Source: Myxococcota bacterium
Lineage (GTDB): Bacteria > Myxococcota_A > UBA9160 > UBA4427
Direction of reading: 5' to 3'
NCBI GenBank assembly: GCA_965250285.1
Contig: OZ252299.1
Coordinates: 3,488,001-3,552,000 of the forward strand
DNA length: 64,000 nt
Part shown: positions 51,104-64,000 of the stretch, in pieces
Position numbering within the stretch: position 1 is the stretch's first letter
Layout of the letters: every line of letters starts with the position of its first letter
Made by a program: the position numbers and the translations under genes
The notes under the pieces: model-generated
What the model was told of the DNA's origin: nothing
Seen by the model: the letters and a program-made list of their open reading frames with translations, nothing else
The model's database searches: none

Positions 51104-51862
51104 ATGCGTTCGACCCCCTCGCTGCCCCGCCGCGCCCTGGCGTGGCTCGCGCTGCCGCTCGTCGGCCTGGCCGGCTGCTCGAGCATGCAGATGCCCGACC
51201 TCACCCAGATCTTCACGGGCTCGGGTGCGCTCGACGAGGCCACGGTCGCCGATGGCCTGCGCCAGGCGCTCACGATCGGCACCGAGCGCGCGACCGAAGA
51301 GCTCTCGGCGCAGGGCGGGTTCGCAGACAACCCCGCCCTGCGACTCGTACTGCCCGACCAGCTCGATCCGCTCGTCGACACGGCGCGAACCATCGGGCTC
51401 GGCTCGGTGGTCGACTCGCTCGACGACGGCATGAACCGCGCGGCCGAGCTCGCCGCCGGCGAAGCGGTACCCGTGTTCGCATCGGCCATCAAGCAGATGA
51501 CGATCGCCGATGCGTTCGCGATTCTGCGCGGCCCCGACGACGCTGCGACGCAGTACTTCCACGAGAAGACCACCGGGCCGCTCGAAGCGCGCTTCGAGCC
51601 CGTCGTGAAGCAGGCGATGGACGACGTCGGCGTCTACGCCCAGTACAAGAAGCTGATCGGCCGCTACGAGATGCTGCCCTTCGCGAAGCCGATGCCGCCG
51701 AGCCTCGAGGGCTACGTCACGCAGAAGACGCTCGACGGGCTGTTCAGCGTGCTCGCGCAAGAAGAGGCCCGTATCCGCGAAGACCCGGTCGCGCGCACCA
51801 CCTCGCTGCTGCAGAAGGTGTTCGGCTCGCAGCAGGCCGAAGAGGCCCGGGCCACGCCCTGA
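51104..51862 (+). CDS. DUF4197-family lipoprotein
   Basis: Lipobox LAGC; GLRQAL, MNRAAE, DAFAILRG.DDAATQYF, IREDPVARTTSLLQKVFG; AAGGAGG RBS. Confidence 0.9.
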   Translation: MRSTPSLPRRALAWLALPLVGLAGCSSMQMPDLTQIFTGSGALDEATVADGLRQALTIGTERATEELSAQGGFADNPALRLVLPDQLDPLVDTARTIGLGSVVDSLDDGMNRAAELAAGEAVPVFASAIKQMTIADAFAILRGPDDAATQYFHEKTTGPLEARFEPVVKQAMDDVGVYAQYKKLIGRYEMLPFAKPMPPSLEGYVTQKTLDGLFSVLAQEEARIREDPVARTTSLLQKVFGSQQAEEARATP

Positions 51863-52066: not shown

Positions 52067-53320
52067 ATGAGCGCCACCCGTGAGCCCCGGCGCAAGCCGC
52101 CCGGGCGGATCACCCGATTTCTGTGGTCGTGCGCGGGCGCCGACCCCGACATTCTCGCGCGCTGTCCGCACACCGACTCGGTGAAGTTCCAGGGCGTGGG
52201 CGGCGTCGTGCTCGCGACGTCGGTGCTCGCCTTCGCCTCGGGCTCGTATGCCTTCTATACCGTGTTCGAGCCCAAGACCGGCATGGCCCTCGCGCGCGAC
52301 ATCCACTGGCCGACGGTCGCGATGGCGGTGTTCGCCGGCCTCGTCTGGGGCCTGGTCATCTTCAACATCGACCGCTTCATCGTGTCGAGCACCGGCAAGG
52401 GCGACGGCACCGAGGCGGTAACCCTGCGCGAGATCGGTCAGTCGATCCCGCGCCTCGTCATGGCCGTGCTGCTCGGCGTCGTGATCTCGGCGCCTCTCGA
52501 GATCCGCATCCTCAAGCCCGAGATCGATGCCCAGCTCGAGCTCGAGCAGAACGAGTACCTCGCGCAGCTGAATCAGCACTCGCAGCAGATGTTTCAGGCT
52601 TCGAAGGACGAGCTGCGCGCCAAGCTCGCTTCGGCGATGAGTCGCCTCGACGAGCGCGAGAGCTACTTCGAGAAGCGTCGCATCGAGATCAACGCGCAGC
52701 GACGCCTGCTCGAGCTCGAGGCCGAGGGCCGCACCGGCAGCGGCGTCGCCGGCCGGGGCCCGGCCTGGCGCGACAAGCGCGACACCCTCGACCAGATGAC
52801 GGCCGAGCTCGAACGCGACCGCGCGCGCGACGCCGAGAAGAGCGAATCGATCGTGCAGGAGGTCGCGCGCTGGAAGACCGAGCTCGCTTCGGTCGACGAC
52901 CGCCTCGACGAAGCGATGGCAAGCAACCTCGAGCAAGCGCGCCATCTCGACGGCTTGATGAAGCGCATCCACATCTCGCACGAGATCGGTGGCGTGGTGC
53001 CCTGGGTGATCCTCCTGCTGCTGCTCGCCATCGAGACCGGGCCCATCTTCTTCAAGATGATGCTGCGCAAAGGCGCCTACGATCATCTCGTCGAAAACGA
53101 GATGCGGGTCGCCATGGCCAGGGCCGGCATCGAGGTCGATGCGCAGATCTATCTGCCCGACACGCGCGAGGAGATTCGCGTCGACGTCTACCACCAGGCC
53201 GAGGCCGCGTTCGAAGACGCGCGTCGGCGCATCGCGAGCGCGCGGGCGCCCGGGGCAACACCGCGACCGCAAGCCGCCGCGGCGCCGAGCCCTCGAGCCG
53301 AGGTCGAAGCGCCCAAGTGA
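52067..53320 (+). CDS. DUF4407-like membrane protein (3 TM, long coiled coil, 1 TM)
   Basis: AGGAG RBS; CAGAD..IL, WGLVIFNIDRFIVSS, PRL, ISAPLE, EGRTGSGVAGRGP, IETGPIFFK. Confidence 0.8.
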   Translation: MSATREPRRKPPGRITRFLWSCAGADPDILARCPHTDSVKFQGVGGVVLATSVLAFASGSYAFYTVFEPKTGMALARDIHWPTVAMAVFAGLVWGLVIFNIDRFIVSSTGKGDGTEAVTLREIGQSIPRLVMAVLLGVVISAPLEIRILKPEIDAQLELEQNEYLAQLNQHSQQMFQASKDELRAKLASAMSRLDERESYFEKRRIEINAQRRLLELEAEGRTGSGVAGRGPAWRDKRDTLDQMTAELERDRARDAEKSESIVQEVARWKTELASVDDRLDEAMASNLEQARHLDGLMKRIHISHEIGGVVPWVILLLLLAIETGPIFFKMMLRKGAYDHLVENEMRVAMARAGIEVDAQIYLPDTREEIRVDVYHQAEAAFEDARRRIASARAPGATPRPQAAAAPSPRAEVEAPK

Positions 53321-55215
53321 ACGACGGCTGGATCGAAGGACGCTTCGAGGGCACCTACGAAGGCGAGCGCCTCGACGACGATGGCGGCGCCGCGCGCGGC
53401 CGGCGTTTCAGCTTTCGTCTGCGCTCGGGCGCCGTGCTCGATGCGACGCCCGTCGATGGCCCCTTCGAGCGCGATCCGGCCACCGAGACGCCCGACGAGA
53501 TTCGGCAGGACCGCGTCGGCGAGATCCGACTGACGGTGCCGGTGCTCGAGATCGATCGCAGCGACACGTCGCTGTTCGATGTGCGCATCGTCGACTGGCG
53601 CCTGTCGCACGGGGCCGAGAGCAAGCGCCGAAGCCACGGGCGCATCGTCGGGCGCGTGCGCGCACGGCTCTTGCCCGGCGCGCCGCCGCCGGTGCCCGAG
53701 GAGCTCGATGAAGCGCCCGATCTCGAGACCACTGCGTTCACCGAGCTCGAAACCCACGACGCAGCCCTCGAGCTCGCCGAGCCGCCGCGACGCGCACGCG
53801 TTGCGCCTCGGGTCGCGACGGGTGAGCTCGCGCATCCCGCGTCGACCGAGGTCGAGGCCCCCGATGCCGACCTCGTCTATGACCGGCTCTGGTTCATCGC
53901 CTCGGTGATCGCCGCACTCAGCGCAGCGCTCGCGATTCGCATCGGCTGCGGCGAACGGCTGGCCTGGCTCTGGCTCGCCGCAATCGGCACCGGCATCTTG
54001 CTGCGCTATTTCGCACGCGACGCGATCCGGGCACAGACCGGCGGGCAGACCGCGCTGGCGACGCTCGTCGTCGGCTCGCAGCTCGTGCTCTGGCTCGAGC
54101 CGCTCGCCTGGGGCGCGAGCCTCTGGTGCACGACACCGACGCAGTGGCAGCTCGGCGGGCTCGGTGGCGCCGTGCTCGCCGCTTCGTTGCTGCGGCGGCG
54201 CATCGTCTTCGCGACGACCGCGCTGGTCTGGACGGCGACGGTGTGCCTGTGGTGCAGCGCGATGAACGGCGCCTGCGTGGCGCCCGCTGCGGCGTTCGGC
54301 GAACGGGATCCGTCGTCGCTCGAGACCCCGCCGCCCGCGTCGACGACGCCCCATGCAGCCCCCCCGCGCACGTCGCCCGACGGGCACTGGCCGGTCATGC
54401 CCGGCCTGCGGCCCGGCGGCGGAGGCGGAGGGGGTACCGGCCTTGCGGGGCAGCCTGGTTTCACTCGCCGGGGTGCCACCGGCGGCAGCGCCGCGGGGAG
54501 CGGCGGAGACCGCTGGTCGGGCGCACCGGGCGCACGCGCCCCGAACCTCGACGCACTGGCGGCGGGCTCGGGCTTGGCCGCGAGCGCGGGCTCCAGCACG
54601 CGTGCGAACGACCAAGCGATCACCGATTCGCCCGTGGCGTCTTCGGGTGAAGCCGCGTCTCGACTCGGCGCCGCGAGCGACCGCACCGAAGCACCGGCGC
54701 CGCCCGACGCCGCGCCGAGATCACCGCAGCCGCGCGGCAGCGGCGCGTCGACCACGCGCGGCGGCTGGGTCGCCGCCGACCACCGCGAGGCGAGCGGCCG
54801 CGCCGAGCTGATCTCGCTCGAACACGCGAACCGCGTGCCGGGCTCGTTCTTCGACAGCGGCGGCGAGCGCCGCGTGTACGTACCGACCGATGCGATCTTC
54901 GAGCCGGGCAGCGCCGACGTGCGTGCGACCGGGGCGCTCGCACTCGGCCGCGTCGCCGCGCTGCTCGAGCTCGAGCCCGAGCGGCGCAAGCTGCTCGTCG
55001 TCCACACCGACGTCGGCGCCGGGCTCGACGTGCAGCAGCGACTCAGCGATCGCCGCGCGGCGAGCGTACGCGACTGGCTGCAGTCACGGGGCCACGTCGA
55101 GGGCGACCGATTCGAGGTCGTCGGCGCAGGCGGCGCCTACCCGCTGGTACCGCCCGACGGGAGCTACGCCGCCCAGGCGCCGAATCGGCGCATCGAGATC
55201 GACCTGATCGACTGA
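53317..55215 (+). CDS. Multi-pass membrane protein with a C-terminal OmpA/MotB-like peptidoglycan-binding domain
   Basis: GTGA overlap with the upstream stop; about 5 hydrophobic helices; Gly/Ala/Pro/Ser linker; DAIFEPGSA, HTD, LSDRRAASV, NRRIEI. Confidence 0.8.
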   Translation: MNDGWIEGRFEGTYEGERLDDDGGAARGRRFSFRLRSGAVLDATPVDGPFERDPATETPDEIRQDRVGEIRLTVPVLEIDRSDTSLFDVRIVDWRLSHGAESKRRSHGRIVGRVRARLLPGAPPPVPEELDEAPDLETTAFTELETHDAALELAEPPRRARVAPRVATGELAHPASTEVEAPDADLVYDRLWFIASVIAALSAALAIRIGCGERLAWLWLAAIGTGILLRYFARDAIRAQTGGQTALATLVVGSQLVLWLEPLAWGASLWCTTPTQWQLGGLGGAVLAASLLRRRIVFATTALVWTATVCLWCSAMNGACVAPAAAFGERDPSSLETPPPASTTPHAAPPRTSPDGHWPVMPGLRPGGGGGGGTGLAGQPGFTRRGATGGSAAGSGGDRWSGAPGARAPNLDALAAGSGLAASAGSSTRANDQAITDSPVASSGEAASRLGAASDRTEAPAPPDAAPRSPQPRGSGASTTRGGWVAADHREASGRAELISLEHANRVPGSFFDSGGERRVYVPTDAIFEPGSADVRATGALALGRVAALLELEPERRKLLVVHTDVGAGLDVQQRLSDRRAASVRDWLQSRGHVEGDRFEVVGAGGAYPLVPPDGSYAAQAPNRRIEIDLID

Positions 55216-55344: not shown

Positions 55345-56463
55345 ATGGAAGCCTCGCCCCGTCAGCTCGCTCTCGATCGACTCGAGCAGTTCCTCTCGTA
55401 TGGGACCGCGCGACTGTCCCGCGCCGATCTGCTCCTCACCCGCCGAGCGCGCGGCTTCGGGCTCTTCGGGCTCGGGATCGTCACGCTCATCGCGCTGGTT
55501 GCCTCGATCAGCATCTCACCCGCCCTCGTGCTCGTCGGCTGGGCCGTGCTGGTGTCGTCGATCGCGGGCTCGCTCTCACTCAGCTTCGTGAAACAGGCGC
55601 GCTACACGCGCCTCTTCAGCCACTTCGGCATCGGCTCGATCCTCGCGGGCATCTTCGCGACGTCGCTCTACATCGGGCCATCGGCCGGCGTCGGCGCGAC
55701 TTTCCCGATTCTGCTGATCCTGGTCACCTGCTACATCCTCGGCGCGAAGGCGGCCGTCGGTTGGACGGCCATGGCCATCGCCGCCCTCGGCTTCGAGACC
55801 TTCACGAGCGATCCGGGCTTTCATCAGGTCGCGGGCGTCGAGTCTTCTCGCGAGTCGTACTTCGGCCTGCGCGCGCTGGTCTTTCTGGGCGTGTGCGCCC
55901 TCGCGGCCATCGAACGCCGCTTCGCCGACGGCAAGGATGCCCAGCTCGAGTTTCTCGCCCGCCACGACGAGCTCACCGGGCTCTGCAACCGTCGGGCGTT
56001 CGAAGAGCGCGCCACCGAAGGCCTGGCCCGAGTGAAGCGTCACGATCGCAGCCTCGCGATGCTCGTCATCGATCTCGATGGCTTCAAGGCGGTGAACGAT
56101 CGCTACGGCCACGCTGCGGGCGACGCGGTGTTGCGCACCGTCGGCCAGCGCATCTCGAGCCGCACGCGCTCGACCGACACGGCATGCCGCATGGGCGGCG
56201 ACGAGTTTCTGGTGCTGCTCGAGGACGTGCGCGAAGAGAAGGACGTCGTGCTCTACGCCGAGCGTCTGGCCCATGTGCTCTGCGAGCCGGTCGTCGTCGG
56301 CAACGACGCGCTCCGCGTGGGCGCCAGCGTCGGCATCGCGTTCGCACCGCGCGATGGCATCACACCCGAAGACCTGAGCCGCGCCGCCGACATCGCCATG
56401 TTCTCGGCCAAGAAAGAAGGCGGCAACGGAGTGCACGTCTACGACGGAGCGCCGCTGGCCTGA
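55345..56463 (+). CDS. Membrane-bound diguanylate cyclase (GGDEF)
   Basis: About 6 TM; HDELTGLCNRR, DLDGFKAVNDRYGH, RSTD I-site, RMGGDEF. Confidence 0.93.
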   Translation: MEASPRQLALDRLEQFLSYGTARLSRADLLLTRRARGFGLFGLGIVTLIALVASISISPALVLVGWAVLVSSIAGSLSLSFVKQARYTRLFSHFGIGSILAGIFATSLYIGPSAGVGATFPILLILVTCYILGAKAAVGWTAMAIAALGFETFTSDPGFHQVAGVESSRESYFGLRALVFLGVCALAAIERRFADGKDAQLEFLARHDELTGLCNRRAFEERATEGLARVKRHDRSLAMLVIDLDGFKAVNDRYGHAAGDAVLRTVGQRISSRTRSTDTACRMGGDEFLVLLEDVREEKDVVLYAERLAHVLCEPVVVGNDALRVGASVGIAFAPRDGITPEDLSRAADIAMFSAKKEGGNGVHVYDGAPLA

Positions 56464-60387: not shown

Positions 60388-60924
60388 ATGAGCACACCCA
60401 ACGAACTCGAAGACCAGATCGTCGCGTCGATCCGTCGGATCATTCGCGCGATTGATCTCCAGTCACGGCGCCTGCAAGATCGCCACAAGCTGACAGGGCC
60501 CCAGCTCGCCACCCTTCGAGAGGCGGAGCGCGTCGGCCAGCCGTCGATCAGCGCCCTCGCCCGCGCCGTCCACCTGAGCCAGCCCACGGTGTCGGGGATC
60601 GTCACGCGCCTGGAGCGCCGAGGTCTGGTTACGCGGAAGCGATCAGAGGGCGATCGACGCAGCGTGGGCATCGAGGTCACGAGGGAAGGACTCGACGTCC
60701 TGGACGAAGCGCCGTCCCTCCTTCAGGAAGACTTCCGCGCCGAGCTGGCGCGGCTCGAAGACTGGGAGCGCCACTGGATGCTGTCCGCGCTCGAGCGGAT
60801 CGCGTCGATGATGGATGCCGAACACCTCGACGCCGCCCCGATCCTCGAGACGGGCCCGGTTGCGCAGCCGGCCGAAGAGGCGCCGACGCCCGGCGGACTG
60901 GACCCCGAAGGGGATCCGTCGTAG
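60388..60924 (+). CDS. MarR-family regulator (EctR-like)
   Basis: IRRIIRAIDLQSRRL..LTGPQL, LSQPTVSGIVTRLE, RSEGDRR, PSLLQEDF, ASMMDAEHLDAAPIL. Confidence 0.88.
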   Translation: MSTPNELEDQIVASIRRIIRAIDLQSRRLQDRHKLTGPQLATLREAERVGQPSISALARAVHLSQPTVSGIVTRLERRGLVTRKRSEGDRRSVGIEVTREGLDVLDEAPSLLQEDFRAELARLEDWERHWMLSALERIASMMDAEHLDAAPILETGPVAQPAEEAPTPGGLDPEGDPS

Positions 60925-61128
60925 GCGACACGATCAATCCAATCCATTGTGTTCTCAATGAATTTTCGGTCGAAGCGGCCTGAGAACCCCCTGAACGCCC
61001 AATTGAGACTTCTCGTTCCATAGTTCTCACTCGGTCATTGCATTGCACTGAATGGATCTGACGACTACCGTGCCCCTCTTCCGCGGGCCGGCTCTCGGCC
61101 CCGAGATCTTCGCCAGATAGAGGGGCCC

Positions 61129-61983
61129 ATGTCGTCCAATCCGACCGAAATCCTTCGCGAGCAGGCCGAACGATCACTGCGCGCCGTCAACCAGGAGTTC
61201 GGCGAATCGCCGACCGACGTTCGCGAGACCAACCACTACCAGGCCGAGTACGTCCAGACCTTCGTCGAGAAGTGGGACGAGCTGATCGACTGGGGGTCAC
61301 GCGCCGAGAGTGAGGGGCGCTTCTTCATCGAGCAGCTGAAGGCGCGCGGCAAGATGAAGGTCCTCGACGTCGCGACCGGCACCGGCTTCCACTCGATCCA
61401 GCTCGCCGACGCGGGCTTCGAGGTGACGAGCGTCGACGGCAACGCCGTCATGCTCGCCAAGGCGTTCCAGAACGCGACCGACCGGCACCTGATCCTCAAG
61501 ACGATTCACGCCGACTGGCGCTGGCTGAACCGCGAGGTGCATGGAAAATTCGACGCGATCATCTGTCTGGGCAACTCGTTCACCCATCTCTTCGACGAGC
61601 AGGACCGAAGACGCGCGTTGGCCGAGTTCTACGCCGCGCTGAAGCACGACGGCATCCTGATCCTCGACCAGCGCAACTACGACTCGATCCTCGACAACGG
61701 CTTCTCGTCGAAGCACAAGTACTACTACTGCGGCGACGACGTCAGCGCCGAGCCCGAGCACATCGACGAGGGTCTCGCCCGTTTCCTCTATTCGTTCCCC
61801 GACGGCTCCGAGTTCCGACTCAACATGTTCCCGCTTCGCAAGAACTACACGCGCAAGCTGATCCGCGAGGCCGGCTTCGCATCGGTCAAGACGTACGGCG
61901 ACTTCCAGGAGACCTACCAGGAAACCGACCCGGACTTCTTCGTGCACGTCGCCGAGAAGCACATGGATCACCCCGATGCCTGA
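61129..61983 (+). CDS. bsmA: Glycine/sarcosine N-methyltransferase (GSMT)
   Basis: HYQAEYVQTFVEKWDELIDW, VLDVATGTG, CLGNSFTHLF, DQRNYD, TYGDFQET, PDFFVHVAEK. Confidence 0.9.
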   Translation: MSSNPTEILREQAERSLRAVNQEFGESPTDVRETNHYQAEYVQTFVEKWDELIDWGSRAESEGRFFIEQLKARGKMKVLDVATGTGFHSIQLADAGFEVTSVDGNAVMLAKAFQNATDRHLILKTIHADWRWLNREVHGKFDAIICLGNSFTHLFDEQDRRRALAEFYAALKHDGILILDQRNYDSILDNGFSSKHKYYYCGDDVSAEPEHIDEGLARFLYSFPDGSEFRLNMFPLRKNYTRKLIREAGFASVKTYGDFQETYQETDPDFFVHVAEKHMDHPDA

Positions 61984-62821
61984 GGAAGCCGGCGCCGCTT
62001 CGGTGACGGCCACGACCGAGGCCTACTACGACAGCGACGAGGCAGATTCGTTCTACGCCGAGATCTGGGGTGGCGAAGACATCCACATCGGCGTCTACCA
62101 GGGGCCTGACGAGGACGTCGCCACGGCGAGCGCGCGCACGGTCGAGACCGTGGCGAGCCACGTCGACTTCTTGAAGCCAGAGCATCGCGTGCTCGACCTC
62201 GGCGCGGGCTACGGCGGCGCCGGGCGATACCTGGCGACGAGATTCGGCTGCCAGGTCGACTGCCTGAACCTCAGCGACGTTCAGAACGAGCGCAACCGTG
62301 CCCTCACCGAGAAGGCTGGGCTGTCCGACCGCGTGCACGTGGTGCACGCGAACTTCGAATCGATCCCCGGATCCGATGCTCGATACGACGTCGTGTGGTC
62401 GCAGGACGCGATCCTCCACAGCGGCGCACGCGAGCGGGTGCTCGCCGAAGTCGCACGCGTTCTGAAGCCCGGCGGACACCTCGTCTTCACGGACCCGATG
62501 CAGACGGACGACTGCCCGCCCGACGTGCTCCAGCCCGTGCTCGACCGCATCCACCTCGACTCCCTCGGTTCACCTGGCTTCTACCGCAAGAACCTGGGCA
62601 GCCTCGGCTTCGAAGAAGTTGCGTTCGCCGAGATGACGAACCAGCTGCGCAACCACTACGACCGCGTTCGACAGGTGCTCGGAGCCCGCCGCGAAGAAAT
62701 GACCCGGCGCTGCGGCGCCGACTACGTGACGCGGATGCTCGAGGGATTGGGGCACTGGGTGAACGGAGCCGATCGGGGCCATCTCACCTGGGGGATCTTC
62801 CACTTTCGGAAGACGGGCTGA
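61976..62821 (+). CDS. bsmB: Sarcosine/dimethylglycine N-methyltransferase (SDMT)
   Basis: YYDSDEADSFYAEIWGGEDIHIG, LDLGAGYGG, WSQDAILHSG, FTDPMQ, RIHL; overlaps the GSMT stop. Confidence 0.9.
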   Translation: MPEEAGAASVTATTEAYYDSDEADSFYAEIWGGEDIHIGVYQGPDEDVATASARTVETVASHVDFLKPEHRVLDLGAGYGGAGRYLATRFGCQVDCLNLSDVQNERNRALTEKAGLSDRVHVVHANFESIPGSDARYDVVWSQDAILHSGARERVLAEVARVLKPGGHLVFTDPMQTDDCPPDVLQPVLDRIHLDSLGSPGFYRKNLGSLGFEEVAFAEMTNQLRNHYDRVRQVLGARREEMTRRCGADYVTRMLEGLGHWVNGADRGHLTWGIFHFRKTG

Positions 62822-62829
62822 GCGCCAGC

Positions 62830-64000
62830 GTGAAAGCAGACTGGTCGCGCATCGAGCCGGCGGTCTTCCTCTCGTCGGCCGGGGTCGTGCTGGCCCTACT
62901 CGCGTTCGGCGTCGCCGACCCGGCGGGAGCGAAGGATCTCTTCCTCGGGATCCAGGACTGGATCGTCGGCACCTGGGGCTGGCTCTTCGTCGGCTCGACC
63001 GCGTTCTTTCTGCTCTTTTCGGTCTGGTGTGCGCTCGGCAAGCGGGGCGCGATCCGGCTCGGTCCAGAAGACGAGCGCCCCACGTTCGGCCTGCCCTCGT
63101 GGTTCGCCATGCTCTTCAGCGCCGGGATGGGCATCGGCATCATGTTCTTCGGCGTCGCCGAGCCGGTGACGCACTTCGCGAACCCGCCGGTCGGGCCCGC
63201 CGGCACGCCCGAAGCCGCGCGCCAGGCGATGACGATCACGTTCTTCCACTGGGGCCTGCACGCCTGGGGCGTGTACGCCGTCATGGGTCTCGCGATCGCC
63301 TACTTCGGCCACCGCCAGGGCCTCCCCCTCGCGATCCGCTCGACCCTCCACCCACTCTTCGGCGACCGGATCCATGGATGGCTCGGTCACGGTGTCGACG
63401 TGTTCGCCGTCTTCGGCACGCTCTTCGGCCTCGCGACCTCGCTCGGCCTCGGCGCCATGCAGATCAACGCCGGTCTGGCCCGGCTCTTCGATGCTCCGGT
63501 GTCGTCCAGGGTGCAGGTGGGGGTGATCGCTGTGATCACGGCGGCTGCGACGACGTCGCTCGTCCTCGGCCTCGACCGCGGGATCAGGCGGCTTTCCGAG
63601 CTCAACGTCGCGCTCGCAACGCTGCTTCTGCTCTTCGTCGCGTTTGCCGGGCCGACATGGGCCTTGGCCCAAGCCTTCCCCACTCTCCTCTTCGACTACG
63701 TCGCAGCGCTCGTTCCAATGGGCAGCGGGGTTCAGGCGATCGGCTCGCCCGATTGGCAGAAGGGATGGACCCTCTTCTACTGGGCCTGGTGGATCGCCTG
63801 GTCGCCCTTCGTCGGAATGTTCATCGCCCGCATCTCGCGCGGCCGCACCATCCGCGAGTTCGTTCTCGGCGTCTTGGTCGTGCCGACGCTGATCAGCTGC
63901 CTCTGGTTCACCGTCTTCGGCTGGTCGGCGATCACCCTCGACACCCAGAGCCCTGGGCTCGTCGCGGCCGTCGAGGGCAACAATGCGATCGGGATCTACG
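62830..64000 (+). CDS. BCCT-family (betaine/choline/carnitine) transporter, 3'-truncated by the window edge
   Basis: Absent from the ORF track because there is no stop in the window. Translation from GTG 62830 gives AMLFSAGMGIG, FFHWGLHAW, WTLFYWAWWIAWSPFVGMFIARISRGRTIREF. Confidence 0.92.
   Translation, partial: MKADWSRIEPAVFLSSAGVVLALLAFGVADPAGAKDLFLGIQDWIVGTWGWLFVGSTAFFLLFSVWCALGKRGAIRLGPEDERPTFGLPSWFAMLFSAGMGIGIMFFGVAEPVTHFANPPVGPAGTPEAARQAMTITFFHWGLHAWGVYAVMGLAIAYFGHRQGLPLAIRSTLHPLFGDRIHGWLGHGVDVFAVFGTLFGLATSLGLGAMQINAGLARLFDAPVSSRVQVGVIAVITAAATTSLVLGLDRGIRRLSELNVALATLLLLFVAFAGPTWALAQAFPTLLFDYVAALVPMGSGVQAIGSPDWQKGWTLFYWAWWIAWSPFVGMFIARISRGRTIREFVLGVLVVPTLISCLWFTVFGWSAITLDTQSPGLVAAVEGNNAIGIY

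Follow-up and report, generated by a model that had tools for sequence, protein, structure and literature searches.

A conserved, uncharacterised gene pair combining a DUF4407 membrane protein with an OmpA-C-bearing membrane protein in a Myxococcota bacterium

Among described envelope machines, the Zorya system offers a first point of comparison for the gene pair considered here, namely the ZorA5B2 complex, which in the sections of its description used for this comparison (PMC11946911) is a 5:2 ring with a mechanistically essential Asp26 in ZorB, a cytoplasmic ZorA tail and cytosolic effectors. The pair, hereafter genes A and C, lies on the forward strand of a 64,000-nucleotide stretch of a Myxococcota bacterium (positions 3,488,001 to 3,552,000 of contig OZ252299.1, assembly GCA_965250285.1), referred to as the window and numbered from its first letter (Table 1). 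Like zorA and zorB, A and C are adjacent genes, the first for a polytopic membrane protein with a coiled coil and the second for a membrane protein that carries a peptidoglycan-binding domain, and, judging from those same sections, a possible sensing of the membrane-to-wall distance would be a further likeness. A sequence-only reading of the window, i.e., one made without database searches, had set the pair apart from both MotAB and ZorAB partly on the ground that the anchor is multi-pass; the conclusion holds but this reason is weak, since Bacteroidota-type C proteins have one predicted transmembrane (TM) helix. It is rather because conserved acidic residues are missing from every TM column of C (at most 8% D/E in any of the five TM ranges, 122 sequences, with the single-TM Bacteroidota forms inspected by eye only), where ZorB has its essential Asp26, and because A matches neither ZorA nor MotA, that an assignment to these motors was rejected. 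Further differences lie in the coil of A, predicted to be periplasmic whereas the sections consulted place the ZorA tail in the cytoplasm, and in the putatively cytoplasmic beta domain, five TM helices, long linker and often absent anchor of C. No Zor model figured among the PADLOC matches of A or C at E up to 1, of which none was meaningful (best E 0.031), and zorC, zorD and zorE were found neither in the two genes flanking the pair in the window nor in 150 of the 151 neighbours chosen, as one representative per cluster, from 80 loci. A and C make up a genuine envelope module, conserved but uncharacterised and here reduced to its smallest form, which corresponds to no known motor or defence system.

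The likeness to MotAB, and to ExbBD/TolQR, is confined to an OmpA/MotB-type C-terminal domain carried by C on a long linker; A matched no Pfam or NCBIfam model of the MotA/ExbB/TolQ family at E up to 0.1, and neither flagellar nor TonB genes recur among the scanned neighbours of the pair. With Tol-Pal, the pair shares its general layout, in which a complex of the inner membrane combines a helical element reaching into the periplasm with a wall binder of the OmpA-C type. Pal, however, is an outer-membrane lipoprotein, whereas the wall binder C lacks a signal peptide and would reside in the inner membrane, and no relatives of TolQ, TolR, TolA or TolB recur among the scanned neighbours. In the literature searched, which left aside supplements and most subscription papers, DUF4407 (PF14362) appeared in table rows only, with no described function, and the listings returned for DUF4407 combined with the features of its partner held nothing relevant.

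The pairing is conserved. Among the best 80 of 133 A-relative loci in GTDB genomes, 71 hold a same-strand gene with the N-terminal domain of C (N-domain) or an OmpA domain, and the recurrent order or adjacency of A and C is therefore more than chance. Nine loci lack a detected partner: six have less than 1.7 kb of downstream sequence, two about 1 kb or less upstream, and the remaining one (L047) contains a divergent C by inspection. In the reverse direction, a search of 301 genomes of the phylum, with 13 candidates scored per genome, found the N-domain in nine, in all cases no farther than about 3 kb from A. PF14362 was present at E below 1e-50 in 11 of these genomes; among 61 relatives, A and the N-domain occur in the same five. 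Both genome samples share members with the 80 loci and the profile training set, and kin are not independent, yet on all these counts the expectation that the pairing would be conserved in other genomes was borne out. In the loci fetched, a C-type partner accompanies eight of nine A-type genes, the ninth lying on a 4.6-kb contig, and none of 11 genes of distant DUF4407 types, such that within DUF4407 the pairing appears limited to the A subtype only. In seven loci fetched from one family (L131-L137), neither B nor C accompanies the DUF4407 gene, which is of a more distant type (Pfam E values of about 1e-24 to 1e-27). Carriers of A relatives are mainly labelled Myxococcota and Bacteroidota, the closest mostly Myxococcota or Deltaproteobacteria; the labels of L010, L011, L042, L060 and others fit poorly with locus similarity or GC content and call for care.

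The two-gene form is not the usual one, contrary to what the sequence-only reading implied, since a second DUF4407-like gene (B) is present in 69 of the 80 loci and yet another gene (Y) in 31. B, with an hhalign probability of 98.4, is truly paralogous to A; both Y and Bacteroidota C have N termini homologous to the N-domain (probability 95 each). In Bacteroidota, Y is a transglutaminase-like paralogue of C, whose terminal domain has invariant Cys, His and Glu residues (15 sequences), no match among PDB sequences and transglutaminase-family Pfam matches all below cut-off (best E 0.0066; for five of the 15, best E 0.017). In the window's genome (G000), profile searches found one DUF4407 gene and one N-domain gene, and neither B nor Y; likewise, the B profile matched A alone in G000, G001, G008, G020 and G026 (completeness 83-98%). 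In a midpoint-rooted FastTree of A, to which no formal clade test was applied, the seven sequences that come from loci without B group into a single clade (support 1.0), which lies among those from B-bearing loci, and B was therefore probably lost once in the window's lineage, where A would likely be a homo-oligomer. Such a two-gene version of a three-to-six-gene operon points to the indispensable parts, namely one DUF4407 protein and one partner with N-domain and TM helices, and is also the simplest to express, purify, solve and reconstitute.

Both open reading frames (ORFs), their GTGA stop/start overlap and every motif quoted in the sequence-only reading were recovered. The overlap suggests translational coupling of A and C; a 4-base overlap also occurs in relative G001, and in other close relatives the two genes are separated by anything from a few to about 20 bases. 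The ATG of A has an AGGAG ahead of it. Longer GTG/TTG ORFs from 51896 and 52123 share frames with the pair; their extra upstream parts were rejected as unsupported, C homologues beginning at the equivalent of 53317. The G+C content at third codon positions (GC3) is 0.90 for A and 0.87 for C, within the window range of 0.82-0.92 (median 0.885, 46 genes), and the pair is therefore not a recent foreign insert; its overall GC is also in line with the genome.

Protein A is a member of DUF4407 over practically the whole profile (positions 1-296 of 297; E 7.6e-67, 226.1 bits against a cut-off of 31.3). The family profile and an AlphaFold2 model (predicted local distance difference test, pLDDT, 80; predicted template-modelling score 0.58) agree on an N-terminal helix, TM1-3, a two-helix hairpin, TM4 and C-terminal helices, with modelled helices at residues 35-67, 81-108, 127-148, 150-219/232-292 (the hairpin, whose tip is the Gly turn) and 311-332. 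An alignment of 75 A proteins, drawn from the 80 loci and the window after removal of fragments and one near-duplicate, shows 34 invariant columns; identity across phyla is 35-80%, a strong conservation. The motifs IDRF (101-104), PRL (128-130), PLE (143-145), EGRTGSGVAGRGP (220-232) and IETGP (322-326) lie along this layout. Residue 323, within TM4, is acidic in 75 of 75 sequences, and Arg103, Arg129 and Lys330 are likewise invariant, while TM1-3 hold no conserved acidic residue in this alignment; N100, R103 and F104, the G110-D113-G114 loop, P128 and R129, all invariant, would face the cytoplasm. If the N terminus is inside, the hairpin would be periplasmic and is predicted to reach about 10 nm into that compartment (70 residues at 1.5 Å per residue). 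Fold and sequence searches with A returned generic coiled-coil matches only; in the fold comparison, the hairpin filled the VIA list, so that the TM part of A was barely sampled.

Protein C is composed of four parts, i.e., the N-domain, a five-helix membrane bundle, a low-complexity linker and a terminal OmpA-C-like domain. The N-domain, modelled as part of residues 1-328 and not on its own (AlphaFold2, pLDDT 83), has five beta strands between residues 5 and 117 and is followed by five membrane-length helices (184-211, 213-232, 244-264, 276-290 and 295-319). Six full-length homologues, 36-53% identical in the best local alignment, keep the N-domain, the TM bundle, the pre-OmpA segment and the OmpA-C domain, and do not keep the linker. 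A profile of 40 N-domains retrieved 258 clusters at 50% identity among 1.84 billion representatives; nevertheless, neither the N-domain nor the bundle matched anything in Pfam, NCBIfam, PADLOC or PHROGs, and comparison with known structures, PDB sequences included, gave no convincing match. A beta domain found in none of the family libraries scanned is thus paired with a DUF4407 protein without described function. The OmpA domain was recognised by PF00691 over residues 528-614 (E 8.1e-10, 39.4 bits against a cut-off of 27.2), NCBIfam giving only sub-cut-off OmpA-type matches in the last 120 residues. In OmpA-C domains, an Asp and an Arg bind peptidoglycan; these residues, which the sequence-only reading had located in HTD (563-565) and LSDRRA (576-581), are indeed kept, Asp565 in 75 and Arg580 in 80 of 86 OmpA-bearing homologues, and the domain is accordingly predicted from sequence to grip the cell wall. 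Lys and Arg residues cluster after TM2 and TM4, with the conserved Cys (271 and 320 in 98%, 211 in 66% and 313 in 56% of sequences) all on the opposite side, which fits an N-in/C-out topology with outer disulfides, a cytoplasmic beta domain and a periplasmic OmpA-C domain. As far as this topology holds, the OmpA-like domain lies on the outer side as had been expected.

The wall anchor, which had been put forward as a defining part of the system, is an optional and not an invariant part of the C family. Among 154 C-type proteins (146 further ids, the window protein and its six close homologues, with one repeat-protein false hit included), the outer domain is OmpA in 86, transglutaminase-like in one and neither in 67, of which about 50 have the TM bundle and the others are fragments or lack it. 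Some of the OmpA-less genes end at real stops inside contigs (e.g., L016, L017 and L028). In P0080, the N-domain and TM part are followed by Ig-like and vWA domains in place of OmpA-C, with sub-cut-off matches to CglD and MIDAS adhesins. Across the family, the sequences thus show an outer domain that is swapped between OmpA-C, transglutaminase-like, Ig plus vWA, or none, and the constant core would comprise A together with the beta domain and TM bundle of C, the outer domain being exchangeable. Protein P0135 (477 residues) joins a B-like DUF4407 segment (E 3e-6, B profile) to an N-domain and a TM helix, and is possibly a natural B-C fusion. An N-terminal extension of about 90 residues with Cys pairs (zinc-ribbon-like) precedes the beta domain in P0113, P0115, P0120, P0129 and P0130, as well as in about ten other C proteins and L074:851-2764. 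P0132 has three near-identical tandem copies of the N-domain, which may be an assembly artefact.

The reading to which most weight is given, while still held tentatively, is that of an inner-membrane scaffold tied to the cell wall through the OmpA-C domain of C and acting in envelope surveillance or stabilisation. A would oligomerise, as a homo-oligomer in the window's genome and as an A/B hetero-oligomer elsewhere, and extend its hairpin into the periplasm; C would dock on it through membrane bundle and beta domain, its long flexible linker giving the OmpA-C domain the reach to hold peptidoglycan. If membrane and wall were strained or pulled apart, this might then be passed to the A core, where the Glu323/Arg103/Arg129 cluster could constitute either a gated polar path or a switch relaying the signal to the cytoplasmic beta domain. 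The link to envelope stress comes from accessory genes: DUF350 relatives occur in 23 loci (Bacteroidota-labelled), and a SPFH/flotillin gene with a small membrane partner in seven, placed upstream divergent, downstream same-strand or downstream convergent, and in the parts of PMC11237479 drawn on here, DUF350 and flotillin plus YqiJ/YuaF-type pairs sit in PspA envelope-stress operons. Those parts do not describe DUF4407 or C, and PMC11237479 does not figure among the papers in which the term DUF4407 was located.

Several observations weigh against this scaffold. Profile searches of the window's own genome detected neither DUF350 nor the flotillin pair, the seven flotillin loci all belong to a single 12-leaf section of the A tree and cannot count as independent, the small flotillin partner resembles NfeD only below threshold (E 0.034, one of three), and no PspA/ESCRT-III-like gene was seen among 87 scanned neighbours (Pfam, 1e-5), the rest of the genomes not being searched; the envelope-stress link of the pair would thus be guilt by association only. 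Neither sequence nor fold comparison connected A or C with any functionally characterised protein, and the roughly 50 bundle-bearing C proteins devoid of an OmpA domain imply that wall binding is unneeded for the core function. The B-N fusion P0135 is a single sequence that may stem from assembly or a frameshift, and the patchy distribution (five of 61 relatives) fits accessory or conflict genes equally.

A further-reaching reading, possible and on the whole doubtful, would see in the pair a new class of envelope machine, in which a DUF4407 oligomer, with its intramembrane glutamate and a hairpin crossing the periplasm, serves as gated channel or mechanical switch. Its control would fall to plug-in partners that have a new cytoplasmic beta fold in common and differ in their outer domain (wall anchor, cysteine enzyme, adhesin or none), and the pair in the window would be the minimal form of such a machine. 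Were the pair truly a wall-coupled sensor or channel, it would add to the inner-membrane complexes anchored in peptidoglycan a kind that has no relation to the 5:2 motors.

The same patchy presence (five of 61 relatives, 11 of 301 phylum genomes) and changing flanks would also suit a membrane anti-phage or anti-competitor system, in which C detects a disturbance of the wall and oligomers of A respond by opening a pore at Glu323, depolarising or arresting the cell. The invariant intramembrane Glu of A and the variable outer domains of C are compatible with such a pore, as is a caspase-domain (Peptidase_C14) gene of about 700 residues located between two DUF4407 genes, downstream of the C gene, in L074 (L074:3422-8082); the sections of PMC11946911 consulted provide with ZorAB a precedent for a wall-anchored membrane complex able to sense phage. 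We consider it unlikely, and the defence option of the sequence-only reading finds little support in the neighbourhoods: besides the lack of meaningful PADLOC matches for the pair itself, only 12 of the 150 neighbour proteins match PADLOC at 1e-5, a count that has no background set, and most do so through generic ATPase, helicase, kinase or WYL domains. Clear defence-type neighbours amount to PDC-S01 (two loci), a methyltransferase-like mad2 match and the caspase. Strong conservation of A across phyla and native codon use also argue against this defence pore.

Alternatively, the pair could form a platform for the building, export or anchoring of surface structures in adhesion, gliding or predation, in which the hairpin of A would span the periplasm and subunits of the C type would contribute a wall anchor, a cysteine enzyme that modifies wall or protein, or a vWA domain resembling an adhesin. 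The carriers, mainly labelled Myxococcota and Bacteroidota, belong to groups known for surface motility, and both the adhesin-like P0080 and the Bacteroidota paralogue with invariant Cys-His-Glu and weak transglutaminase-family matches speak for it. Such a role nonetheless appears improbable, as the neighbours include no recurring gene for an outer-membrane protein, an ATPase or secretion and the presence is too patchy for core motility.

Less probable again is a signalling receptor, with C as the sensor and the beta domain acting on regulators encoded elsewhere, e.g., the adjacent diguanylate cyclase. Modular outer domains on a constant membrane and cytoplasmic core would befit a receptor, as would the Cys-pair extension of some C proteins and the same-strand GGDEF gene after C in the window; yet this gene does not adjoin the pair in the close relatives examined, two-component genes occur in only eight of 80 loci and at varied positions, and the cassette has no catalytic or DNA-binding output domain. 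Finally, a very distant 5:2 ion-driven rotary motor of the MotAB/ZorAB/ExbBD/TolQR kind, to which the gross layout of a polytopic and a peptidoglycan-binding subunit, the single-pass C of Bacteroidota and weak MotB-family matches limited to the OmpA-C domain might lend credit, is highly improbable and largely refuted by the missing Asp, together with the profile results for A and the predicted position of its coil given above.

Table 1. Features of the gene pair and its flanks (positions in the window).
Feature	Position	Strand	Remarks
Upstream gene, DUF4197 lipoprotein-like	51104-51862	+	Not beside the pair in relatives
Gene A, DUF4407 protein	52067..53320	+	417 residues; four TM helices, an alpha-helical hairpin predicted to be periplasmic, N- and C-terminal helices on the cytoplasmic side
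A, TM1-TM3	52190..52504	+	About residues 42-66, 82-100 and 128-146
A, helical hairpin	52514..52987	+	Residues 150-307, two arms of about 60-70 residues; model, alignment
A, conserved Gly turn at hairpin tip	52724-52762	+	G231 invariant; G229 and P232 nearly so
A, TM4 with invariant intramembrane Glu323	52997..53062 (Glu323 53033-53035)	+	E-x-G-P-I-F-F-K motif
GTGA stop/start overlap of A and C	53317..53320	+	Sequence
Gene C	53317..55215	+	632 residues; N-domain, five TM helices, low-complexity linker, OmpA-C-like domain
C, N-domain, all-beta	53317..53682	+	Residues 1-122; inferred cytoplasmic; model, profile
C, five-helix membrane bundle	53866..54273	+	Residues 184-319; model, alignment
C, G/A/S/P-rich linker	54277..54756	+	Weakly conserved except for a short RT-x-x-x-G-x-W-P motif
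C, conserved pre-OmpA segment and OmpA-C-like domain	54757..55212	+	Residues 481-515 and 516-632; Pfam, alignment
C, Asp565 and Arg580	55009-55011 and 55054-55056	+	In the OmpA-C-like domain
Downstream gene, membrane-bound GGDEF diguanylate cyclase	55345-56463	+	Downstream of C; not beside the pair in relatives

The flanks of the pair vary among close relatives and are mostly metabolic. A small gene (about 120-130 residues, without Pfam or NCBIfam match) lies directly upstream of A in seven related loci (L033-L039, e.g., L034:5558-5950), and small unmatched genes are found between C and A in L043, L074, L076 and L123. Farther along the window, positions 60388-64000 of the forward strand encode a MarR-like regulator, two S-adenosylmethionine (SAM) methyltransferase-like genes and a transporter-like gene, a set which we take to resemble the methylation of glycine/sarcosine to glycine betaine with a BCCT carrier.

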